Origin: a phage
Sequence record: PV357170.1
DNA length: 42,358 nucleotides
Strand: one strand, 5' to 3'
How positions within the stretch are numbered: the first letter of the stretch is position 1; each line of letters begins with the position of its first letter. The notes beneath the pieces were generated by a model that ran no database searches, was not told where the DNA came from, and was given only the letters and a program-made list of their open reading frames with translations. The translations under genes and the position numbers were made by a program. Shown here piece after piece: positions 36,201-37,482 of this stretch.

Positions 36201-37482
36201 GCGCATCTGGGTCAAACACAGGACGTTTCAAGTCTAGAGTAAAGAGTGGGGACTTTTCATCCGCAGAGACTGCATAACGCTGCCCTTCAATACCGTCCGT
36301 TAGTTCTTTAAAATCTTTGGTTTTGGTAGCACCAAGTTTGCGCCACATCTGCTGAGCAGACGCAGTTACTGAGTTATCAGACAACAAGTTACCATATCCT
36401 GCATCAGTAGCGCGCTTAACTAGTGCTTTGTACATGCTCGCACCTACTCCCTTGCCACGCAGGGATTTATCAACCCAGGCATGTGCTACTTGTAAATCAT
36501 CACCTACACGATAAGCCTGCACAACACCAACCAACTTATCTCCGCGATTTACTTCTACCTCTATACCAGGTACGCGTACACCAGAGTAAGCGTGGTGCTC
36601 TACATCATCCAGCACGTTCAAGCTTAAACCTTCTGGTAAACCGTCAGTGGTTTTAGCAACCGCAGCACTATCAGCTTGCGCATTAGACGGGCCAGCAGGG
36701 GAATCTACCACATTGCGACTTGTTGCTACTTCTTCCGGAGCAGTGCGGGAAGTTGCCGTAGCAGCATTAGGGGTGGTCTCAGCAGCTCTTGTAGTTGACG
36801 CAGCTGCCGTAGATGCGCGTACAGCCCTACGGATATCCCAGAGTTGGTCTAGACCAGCTACACCTGCTACAAGAGCAGTAACTGCCGCAGACTGACCCAG
36901 TTGGTCCTGTGCATAAACAGCCGTACCTACATCCGCTGCGCGGATAGCAGTGCGCACTGCTAAGCCAGCCCGACCAGCGATACCTGCCGCAGACATCGGA
37001 GCTAGGAGAAATGGAGAGTCACCTGCTATAGCCCCAGCGAACCCAGCTATTGTGTTGTCAGCCATTAAGCGATCGCGATGACGCTGATCAAGCATCTGCT
37101 GTATGCGGTAGTTATAGTCCTCCAGAGACACTGCTCCATGTAAGTAATCAATTTCTTCTTGATTAGGGGTATAGAGTTTAGCCCGTGAATCAGTGCTTAA
37201 TTGCTTCTTAGCATCAAAACCCTGCTCTGGGACAAATGCCGGGGCGGAGGCTTTACGGATAGCTGCAGCTATGATGCTATTACCCATACCAGACGCAAAG
37301 CTCTCTGCAGCTGTAGTAGCAGGAGTCTTGGCCTGTGCTAGTAAGGAGGCACGCTCCAGTGCATTCAAGCCGTCATCACCCGCATCGTTCCAATCTATAC
37401 GCGCAGGCGCAGGTTTAAGTGTTGCGCCCTTAGCAGAATCCTTTTCCTGTGGATTCGGTTCTTGGTTCAGAAACTGAGCCAT
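33220..37482 (-). CDS. internal virion (ejection) protein C, T7 gp16-like by size and position, with embedded GNAT-like signature
   Basis: 1420 aa, last of three consecutive internal virion protein genes; AGGAGA RBS; residues ~286-386 carry GNAT-like motifs; HELIH at residues 561-565. Confidence 0.75.
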   Translation of the reverse strand: MAQFLNQEPNPQEKDSAKGATLKPAPARIDWNDAGDDGLNALERASLLAQAKTPATTAAESFASGMGNSIIAAAIRKASAPAFVPEQGFDAKKQLSTDSRAKLYTPNQEEIDYLHGAVSLEDYNYRIQQMLDQRHRDRLMADNTIAGFAGAIAGDSPFLLAPMSAAGIAGRAGLAVRTAIRAADVGTAVYAQDQLGQSAAVTALVAGVAGLDQLWDIRRAVRASTAAASTTRAAETTPNAATATSRTAPEEVATSRNVVDSPAGPSNAQADSAAVAKTTDGLPEGLSLNVLDDVEHHAYSGVRVPGIEVEVNRGDKLVGVVQAYRVGDDLQVAHAWVDKSLRGKGVGASMYKALVKRATDAGYGNLLSDNSVTASAQQMWRKLGATKTKDFKELTDGIEGQRYAVSADEKSPLFTLDLKRPVFDPDAPTTRTARDVNVTGVGEGEEILTKALDEPIKVLRNNTTTVNIKAQDVVRFLKTSEHLSKGQKAILDTLGDAVQDIDFKLVAGSSNRSHYSFPLVSRTDRGFVSLRAPKKANGSTWTTVGDALRAMDADTSRVAVHELIHAATTRALKRNPEIASKLEEVRAAIAADSTLSDKLKYYASDVHEMLAGLGDSPEWVEYLSKTQSPTGRSMLRQIGEYIMNALGIRTKGSALEDVLDAYEDAVKWTAKDYAEQVQSFRSESFQDLADTSVKNEALKAQTMMDTAKRKLATMFSLYDNIAEGSEDLARLLVSDATAVGGRKPSVVDFKRNLTLEMDASASVVEDAILGALKAKGVGFIDRFFHRSNFRAARADLEDRLGRYLDSAYSAEVNGRPVPLPDSDLVPLVEAYRNSGWASKWHDHMTAAGLVDDGTLIKSDYYFPRQYSYDKMRQGIANGRSLDNYRDLFRQALRDVYPSMEPEVVQRVAKEMVDGIYNGRSSASGPMWKQLINGMGNDEVVMAMRNAGVDESAIQSFLAGNVRESGATSPAKNLRQRTRFNMDKEYIVDGQVMRMQDLMDTDVAKVMHGYTNRMSGRVGMAYAGVSDLKTLETMINESKHALADSGKWEKTVNDTIDFILGGAPADAGQMPDLLRAAGNMANATMLKNSGLYQLTDTALALKEFGMSRVLRSMREQPWFKEGAVAIRTPDMASRLDAILRGSIQKEMRFRWLNTYADDNLDLTRQASWFNVTQNVGQAARHVNGMSMVHRLQVNLNSGIVADELQQMFKGDAEAFKRLERFGLTRDVADRAIAANKANPGAMFQPDLQMQIEVVGTRMMDYLVQQVRTGETSHFAQFNPIGKIIVGYQSFALAATNKILRRELSDAGWIGVAHIMAYQFPLMLLATMAKHGMDGKDVDTQKLISESVMGMSAIGGISLLQDIFTGDSPRHSLASMGYVTGLLGALQDLATGDMDIQTFTKQVPLIQEFAPTRAIINNFGDD

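Follow-up and report, generated by a model that had tools for sequence, protein, structure and literature searches.

Phage T4 Alt, an ADP-ribosyltransferase, is an experimentally established, virion-delivered enzyme that modifies host proteins ahead of phage gene expression, and it is cited as the prototype in the study of "polyvalent proteins" by Iyer, Burroughs, Anand, de Souza & Aravind (2017; PMC5512222), very large phage proteins predicted to be packaged and injected with the DNA. Two families of RimI-like Gcn5-related N-acetyltransferases (GNATs), predicted to be protein modifying, were described among them; the first occurs in gammaproteobacterial phages, with an ART domain as its usual neighbor. 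The terms "gp16" and "internal virion" occur 0 times in that paper, and the paper searches made here found no report of an assayed activity or target for any polyvalent-protein GNAT. Enzymatic cargo is also borne into the cell by the T7 ejection protein gp16, whose N-terminal lytic transglycosylase (SLT) is a phage-specific feature within the T7 gp16 family (review, PMC8954989). Here, we report a predicted GNAT domain inserted in a 1420-amino-acid (aa) T7 gp16-type internal virion protein, or tetrameric ejection protein (TEP), encoded in the phage sequence PV357170.1, analyzed over its whole length of 42,358 nucleotides (nt) (the window).

For polyvalent proteins, injected GNAT effectors had been put forward before (PMC5512222); what is new here is that a T7-type ejection protein is the carrier and that the insert occupies a defined position in it. 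By its RimI-like affinity, its context in a large virion protein, and the partner domains of its homologues, the domain fits the polyvalent-protein GNAT class as far as sequence comparison can place it. In both cases a RimI-like GNAT lies inside a very large phage protein predicted to be injected, and relatives are paired with ART-PolyVal, NUDIX, PBECR5, LPD38, DarB-like, and MuF domains; the carrier here differs in being a channel-forming T7 gp16-type ejection protein, in which the Pfam scan showed neither an ART nor any other effector domain beside the GNAT. Alt has another fold, uses NAD+ as cofactor, is a free head protein outside the DNA-entry channel, and is established by experiment, whereas the GNAT is predicted. 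The T7 gp16 SLT is likewise a cargo domain of the ejection protein, yet its place is at the N terminus and in the periplasm; the GNAT follows the equivalent of "TMH I," has a different fold and chemistry, and needs cytoplasmic acetyl-CoA.

GNAT domain and its relatives

An earlier note, made from the letters of the window alone, had proposed a GNAT-like signature at 36325-36627. The peptide that it quoted is exactly present as residues 286-386 of the 1420-aa open reading frame (ORF) on the minus strand (the plus strand is interrupted there by many stops), and the signature stood at that site, while its span had to be widened to residues 281-420 for the true domain. The Pfam scan suggested as a check placed Acetyltransf_1 (PF00583; gathering cut-off, 20.7 bits) on residues 311-384 of the whole protein (30.1 bits; E = 6.3e-7) and scored 33.0 bits (E = 7.9e-8) on the excised domain, with Acetyltransf_10 and Acetyltransf_7 also matching. 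A word-indexed protein search with the GNAT domain alone gave no match; HMMER, run exhaustively over 1.84 billion representative proteins, returned 64 relatives at E <= 1e-3, all at <=50% identity. Thirty of these 64 make up the family alignment and profile used here; they share ~22-35% identity with the domain and define the subfamily signature LQV...R-G-K-G-x-G...Y...A...G...S-D-x-S-V-S-x-x-A-x-x-V-W-x-x-L. Against the PDB sequence set, the 30-sequence profile found RimI best (E = 8.9e-8).

Structure prediction, also suggested in the note, gave a confident model (AlphaFold2 on the family alignment; pLDDT 91.8, pTM 0.85) with the element order of the GNAT fold (beta2-4, alpha3, beta5, alpha4, beta6-7). 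Foldseek comparison of this model with the PDB gave 257 matches at E <= 1e-3, the best 50 listed being all GNATs, headed by the Helicobacter protein acetyltransferase HP0935 and Escherichia coli RimI (TM 0.60, root mean square deviation 2.6 Å). A single-sequence model was too poor in its C-terminal third, and its fold matches were likewise GNATs only. By profile and by model, residues 281-420 were thus confirmed as a predicted GNAT domain, and no second copy of the subfamily was found within the window. The alpha1-alpha2 helices of the N-terminal arm are absent from the model, which has strands only before alpha3 and no helix in residues 275-345; the domain is therefore read as a minimal GNAT with an open acceptor side. 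The PF00583 alignment enters at profile position 38 of 116, and the arm (beta1-alpha1-alpha2) is variable within the GNAT superfamily.

Motif A, as the note had read it, is RGKGVG at residues 342-347, and its acetyl-CoA-binding positions are kept across the family (R/Q in 28/30 members, G in 28/30, and G/A in 29/30); the motif B pattern was found at residues 368-384, SDNSVTASAQQMWRKLG. The acetyl-CoA loop therefore appears intact, and binding of acetyl-CoA is predicted. In RimI, the ribosomal protein bS18 alanine N-alpha-acetyltransferase, Glu103 is reportedly the general base and Tyr115 the general acid. Asp369 aligns with Glu103 in the HMM alignment to E. coli RimI (5isv), which sets "SD" on "LE" of LWLEV.

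RimI (PDB 5isv and 2cnm; TIGR01575) is the best sequence-profile match and a near-best fold match, with an equal cofactor loop and an acidic residue at the general-base position. In the phage domain, however, Asp replaces Glu, Trp replaces the catalytic Tyr, alpha1-alpha2 are missing, the domain is internal to a 1420-aa protein, and the RimI equivalog cut-off is not reached (TIGR01575, 16.7 bits versus 86.4); no NCBIfam functional family reached its cut-off for this domain. The minimal GNATs of the Acetyltransf_CG/YjdJ/COG2388 type (PDB 5i0c and 1r57) resemble it in their short core without a full N-terminal helical arm and gave weak Pfam and PDB matches, but PF14542 scored 22.1-25.7 bits versus a cut-off of 30, and the signature here (SDxSVSxxAxxVW) differs.

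The subfamily recurs in virion-targeted scaffolds. Among the 64 relatives, 27 exceed 800 aa and only 9 are <=250 aa. One (P0017, 1446 aa) is gp16-like, a distant phrog_342 protein whose GNAT lies at residues 315-386, and another (P0042, 1322 aa) belongs to the internal-virion-protein family phrog_6651, with the GNAT at 316-380 and a contig in T7-like gene order that includes a T7-type DNA_Packaging_2 gene. Xylella phage Cota encodes a 1490-aa gp16-like protein with a canonical N-terminal SLT and a GNAT at ~572-688. One member is fused to a Phage_Mu_F (MuF) domain, others carry a DarB-like region or an LPD38 region, and giant members, some with several copies of the GNAT, carry ART-PolyVal, NUDIX, PBECR5 nuclease, and kinase-like domains; the ART domain is present in the homologue P0027 and, by Pfam scan, not in the 1420-aa protein. 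Two further observations concern these relatives. The Cota protein (4285-8757) has a second, weak GNAT-like Pfam match at residues ~339-394 (E = 7e-4, below the cut-off), which overlaps a hydrophobic stretch and may be spurious. Tunturiibacter phage Tunturi_5 (PP885688.1, a 308-kb jumbo phage) has two weak subfamily matches (264288-264590 and 229483-229635) in genes annotated as MutT/NUDIX hydrolase, echoing the NUDIX and GNAT pairing of giant metagenomic proteins.

Carrier protein and insertion site

The 1420-aa protein was, as the earlier note had called it, of the T7 gp16 type: it matched phrog_342 (E = 1.6e-234; alignment beginning at profile position 180) and lies in the gene order nozzle, gp14-like, gp15-like, 1420-aa ORF, tail fiber (Phage_T7_tail), with terminase genes also nearby and all long ORFs around it on the minus strand. 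Its PDB sequence relatives are 23sg gp10, the PhiM1 TEP gp48 (8vb2, residues 303-1252 of which align to residues 479-1411 here), and 9sfn. DNA and protein searches place PV357170.1 in the genus Drulisvirus (Autographiviridae, Slopekvirinae; KP34-like), closest to Escherichia phage ZH5 (94.6% identity across the 1420-aa gene) and Shigella phage SFN6B. The protein is probably a virion component, as its orthologues are: the GNAT-less one in fHe-Kpn01 (gp48) is listed in its GenBank notes as virion associated by liquid chromatography-tandem mass spectrometry, and the homologues 23sg gp10 and 8vb2 PhiM1 gp48 (PMC11440229) were solved inside virions. The note had seen no transglycosylase, and none (SLT) was detected in the 1420-aa protein by Pfam scan. 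The GNAT does not stand in for a lytic domain: Drulisvirus relatives are collinear apart from the insert, with or without the GNAT, and Cota has both SLT and GNAT.

Comparison with related internal virion proteins, another check that the note had named, defined the insert. The orthologue in Escherichia phage Minorna has 1232 aa, is 94% identical elsewhere, and lacks residues ~225-420; these form a clean in-frame insertion of ~190 residues, with a 56-residue linker first and the 140-residue GNAT after it. A search of 50,697 phage records found the GNAT domain in ZH5, SFN6B, myPSH1235, and KpV48, which makes five cultured Drulisvirus-type carriers counting PV357170.1; in IMG/VR it was found at five loci, two of them metagenome contigs. 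Both flanks of the insertion site are contained in 322 phage records, nearly all without the insert. The flank-to-flank span, measured in a spread sample of 60 of the 322, was 600 nt with few exceptions; more distant genera had 615-747 nt, and only the GNAT carriers had 1164 nt. No other cargo domain was seen at the site in these 60. Within this sample, the insertion site is a variable linker that holds a domain-sized insert only in the small GNAT group. We found no paper on the GNAT domain of these ejection proteins; the GenBank record of SFN6B annotates the orthologue with "cd04301: N-Acyltransferase superfamily."

The ratio of nonsynonymous to synonymous substitution rates (dN/dS) was 0.02-0.11 for the GNAT, 0.03-0.12 for the backbone, and 0.33-0.58 for the linker; the GNAT is under strong purifying selection and the linker is relaxed. 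A decayed remnant was ruled out by dN/dS and the conserved cofactor loop, and the insert is, on this comparative evidence, predicted to be functional. In the rest of the gene, the GNAT-less Minorna and Klebsiella phage Hope are closer to PV357170.1 than the carriers KpV48 and myPSH1235 are, so the carriers are not mutual closest relatives. Synonymous divergence of the module was below that of the rest of the gene in most comparisons involving PV357170.1 (with SFN6B, 0.18 for the GNAT versus 0.26-0.92 elsewhere, the 0.92 in residues 1-224; with KpV48, 0.73 for the module versus 1.0-1.6), the exceptions to lower module divergence being the myPSH1235 linker and the KpV48-myPSH1235 pair. This suggests that the module has been exchanged by recombination. 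The GC content gave no distinctive foreign-DNA signature (insert, 0.49; rest of the gene, 0.52). Along the gp16-like gene as a whole (33220-37482), synonymous divergence between one phage pair varies several-fold, indicating mosaic recombination within it.

The position of the insert in the ejection machine was approached through T7 gp16, whose modelled layout runs from a periplasmic transglycosylase (residues 1-156) through a "molecular tape" (157-228), TMH I (243-410), and a cytoplasmic hub (411-1118) to TMH II (1119-1290); the N-terminal part alone was observed experimentally, and the membrane and cytoplasmic parts were modelled (PMC8954989). Direct profile alignment of the Drulisvirus protein with T7 gp16 gave one short anchor only, and the mapping was therefore made through intermediates. 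By phmmer, residues 117-419 of the 1420-aa protein align with P0017 102-431 (2e-14), and P0017 117-219 align weakly with T7 gp16 311-409 (iE 0.024), with matching hydropathy peaks; a further weak anchor joins Cota 376-457 to T7 gp16 322-410 (iE 0.14). Kyte-Doolittle peaks of the 1420-aa protein lie at residues 154-167, 208, and 1314-1350, all below the usual transmembrane threshold (maximum, 1.46). The first two would correspond to T7 TMH I and the third to TMH II. In all five GNAT-bearing lineages, the GNAT lies ~50-130 residues past the last N-terminal hydrophobic segment. On this T7-based mapping, the GNAT would lie at the start of the cytoplasmic part, right after the TMH I equivalent and before the hub, a placement that fits its need for acetyl-CoA. 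The coordinates of the features are collected in Table 1.

Table 1. Features of the ejection protein gene and its partner genes in PV357170.1 (positions in the window)
Feature	Position	Strand	Basis
ORF of 1420 aa, T7 gp16-type internal virion protein/TEP with GNAT insert	33220..37482	minus	phrog_342, PDB sequence relatives, gene order
Predicted minimal GNAT domain, residues 281-420	36223..36642	minus	Pfam PF00583, AlphaFold2, Foldseek, dN/dS
R342-G-K-G345-V-G347, predicted acetyl-CoA pyrophosphate-binding loop (Q/R-x-x-G-x-G/A, motif A, beta4-alpha3)	36442..36459	minus	Sequence
Tyr351, helix alpha3	36430..36432	minus	Family counts (invariant, 30/30)
Ser368-Asp369, after strand beta5	36376..36381	minus	Family counts (Ser invariant, Asp 26/30)
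Trp380, helix alpha4, at the position of RimI general-acid Tyr115	36343..36345	minus	Family always aromatic (W 23, Y 6, F 1)
Low-complexity Ala/Thr/Ser/Pro-rich linker, residues 225-280, first part of insertion	36643..36810	minus	A16 T11 S6 P4 of 56 residues; absent from Minorna
Gly/Ala-rich hydrophobic segments, residues ~145-215, probable equivalent of part of T7 gp16 TMH I	36838..37050	minus	Hydropathy and phmmer anchor chain, last link weak
Remainder of ejection protein, residues 421-1420 (equivalent of the PhiM1 "endolysin-like" region, hub, and C-terminal hydrophobic segments ~1305-1360 as TMH II equivalent)	33220..36222	minus	Collinear with GNAT-less Minorna; 8vb2; hydropathy
gp15-like internal virion protein, 894 aa, ejectosome partner	37532..40216	minus	phrog_2083, 1072 bits
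gp14-like internal virion protein, 195 aa	40232..40819	minus	Pfam T7_gp14, E = 2e-27

Proposed function and alternatives

We propose, with confidence divided about evenly for and against, that the insert is an accessory protein acetyltransferase that depends on acetyl-CoA, is delivered by the virion, stays tethered to the ejection channel, and acts in the cytoplasm as infection begins. The 1420-aa protein would travel in the capsid core (in related phages, each virion has about four copies), leave the particle before the DNA, and refold in the cell envelope; the GNAT, on its flexible tether of ~56 residues, would come to lie where the DNA-entry channel opens, on the cytoplasmic side. With acetyl-CoA from the host as donor, it would acetylate a host protein (or one of the phage) on an amino group prior to phage gene expression, most plausibly to blunt a host defense or a take-over target, as an accessory function separate from channel formation. 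We infer delivery of a folded domain, a cytoplasmic location, catalytic activity, and a protein substrate. The fusion of this GNAT to gp16-like proteins, MuF, DarB-like proteins, and ART-PolyVal giants argues for selection on co-delivery over late expression. The earlier note had offered an envelope or a cytoplasmic target as a speculation; the envelope is an unlikely one, since acetyl-CoA is found in the cytoplasm and the T7-based model puts the insertion on that side, which is favored.

Several points weigh against this proposal. Activity, cofactor binding, and substrate of the subfamily are predictions from sequence; the usual general-acid Tyr is Trp here and alpha1-alpha2, which would shape the acceptor site, are absent from the model, so catalysis could be weak or unusual. 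The topology leans on the two low-significance anchors and on a largely modelled T7 gp16, a mere handful of copies enters per infection, nearly all relatives do without the domain, and the GNAT has to traverse the tail channel unfolded and then refold. A region adjoining the GNAT also matters in this respect: PhiM1 Asp268-Asp528 (~residues 445-705 here) was called "endolysin/exotransglycosidase-like" (PMC11440229), and if a region of this type were active on peptidoglycan, it and the GNAT would be periplasmic, without acetyl-CoA.

A more specific form of the proposal is tentative and on the unlikely side: the leashed GNAT at the channel mouth would be an ejectosome-anchored counter-defense enzyme, acetylating and disabling a host protein that nears the incoming DNA end (e.g., a restriction, RecBCD-like, or other immune component) before phage transcription.

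Somewhat unlikely, in our estimate, is action in the producer cell late in infection, on phage core or capsid proteins, on the GNAT protein itself, or on host proteins, with packaging incidental. Acetyl-CoA would surely be available there, the copy number would be far above that after ejection, and the RimI-like affinity would be in keeping with acetylation of partner proteins at N termini or lysines. Hardies et al. (PMC4819975) found T7 gp13 (IVP-A) and the matching phiRIO-1-like gene to be acetyltransferase-like by HHpred, which hints at an assembly-linked GNAT near the core genes. Like the domain reported here, gp13 is a GNAT-like protein encoded in the internal-virion-protein module of podophages, but it is a separate small gene upstream of gp14, a position at which the window has no such gene. 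A link between the two was tried and not retained, hhalign giving a probability of 1% (E = 0.055) in a weak test with gp13 entered as a single sequence. This lack of similarity, the repeated fusion to different virion-targeted scaffolds, which favors co-delivery, and the fact that nearly all relatives assemble their core without the domain count against the producer cell as its place of action.

It is rather improbable that the GNAT is periplasmic or channel bound, either as a non-catalytic module that helps in binding, spacing, or folding or as an enzyme of a single turnover with acetyl-CoA pre-bound from the previous host. The "endolysin-like" name of the adjoining PhiM1 region, the Tyr-to-Trp exchange at the general-acid position together with the missing alpha1-alpha2, and a cytoplasmic assignment that rests on a model all speak for it. 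However, a family of pseudo-enzymes would hardly be expected to keep its acetyl-CoA loop and an Asp at the general-base position at ~25% identity, as this family does, and five lineages have the insertion downstream of their TMH I equivalent. Sequence comparison also lent no support to a muralytic fold in residues 421-700, where Pfam gave no match to a muralytic or zincin fold and the PDB sequence set gave none beyond the homologue 23sg. As a separate observation, the equivalent of the PhiM1 region contains an HExxH motif (HELIH, residues 561-565, within VAVHELIHAAT; 35788-35802, minus strand). Every Drulisvirus orthologue examined shares it, as does PDB 23sg gp10, and neither Pfam nor the PDB sequence set gave a match to a peptidase or lysozyme; zincin-like sites are common in polyvalent proteins, and the motif could be one of these or a chance occurrence.

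A small-molecule substrate (a polyamine, an aminoglycoside-like compound, an amino acid analogue, or a defense-related amine) is improbable. Many structural neighbors act on aminoglycoside, nourseothricin, arsinothricin, or diaminobutyrate, but all NCBIfam equivalog scores are far under their cut-offs, the closest relatives in sequence and fold (RimI and HP0935) are protein acetyltransferases, the loss of alpha1-alpha2 in the model takes away the usual wall of a small-substrate pocket, and a few tethered copies are ill suited to clearing a metabolite pool. GNAT toxins occur in Enterobacteria and shut-off of host translation is a plausible take-over step, but a toxin of the TacT/AtaT type, acetylating charged tRNA to stop host translation at the start of infection, is highly improbable for a phage that requires translation minutes later and a domain without net positive charge (~19 acidic versus ~19 basic residues, counted from the sequence), and no such toxin is named among the PDB matches listed, no specific test for these toxins having been made.

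One further candidate was rejected. In fHe-Kpn01, Gp38 is toxic in E. coli and N-acetyltransferase-like by HHpred (PMC7291057), and the GNAT might have made up for its loss; the window keeps a Gp38 homologue, unrelated to the GNAT subfamily, as a 147-aa ORF (4052-4495, minus strand; 84% identical, no Pfam match).

Surrounding genes and significance

Other features of the window were recorded in passing. The nozzle (tail tubular protein B) gene, within 40824-42356, is broken by a lone in-frame TAA at 42159-42161 (minus strand), where fHe-Kpn01 gp45 has TAC (Tyr); the remainder is continuous, with 84.7% identity to gp45 residues 281-791, and the TAA is either a sequencing error or a nonsense mutation. 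This gene extends past the right edge of the window, and no tail tubular protein A was detected; the window is therefore not a complete genome. Three HNH_3 homing-endonuclease-type ORFs (8336-8785, 12819-13253, and 15943-16398, minus strand) lie among the early/replication genes; SFN6B has a further HNH gene between the core protein and the tail fiber, which is absent from the window. The T7-type tail fiber is short (329 aa; 32229-33218, minus strand), with only the N-terminal T7-tail-fiber domain recognized, and a 156-aa ORF (26066-26536, minus strand) adjoining a 551-aa ORF bears a Tailspike_C domain. The short fiber and the separate Tailspike_C ORF look like a split anchor-plus-tailspike receptor-binding system.

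An enzyme domain of this sort in an ejection protein is not surprising in principle, injected "polyvalent" effector domains having been predicted in 2017, and its value is as a rare and experimentally convenient handle. The present case is unusually testable: the ejection machine that bears the domain is of a well-studied type, some of the GNAT-carrying phages infect E. coli or Shigella, and near-identical GNAT-less phages such as Minorna, which lack exactly this module, are a natural control, so that an in-frame deletion should be viable. The positional rule that emerges is that ejection proteins tolerate inserted cargo between the equivalent of TMH I and the hub, as far as the mapping to T7 holds. 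If the counter-defense role were true, no earlier enzymatic effector would have been shown to work from inside a T7-type DNA-ejection channel, and the polyvalent-protein GNATs would have their first experimentally tractable case. The identity of the target would show what a phage gains from modifying its host in the first seconds of infection, could reveal a defense or take-over node, and would bear on the host range of KP34-group therapeutic phages of Klebsiella and E. coli.

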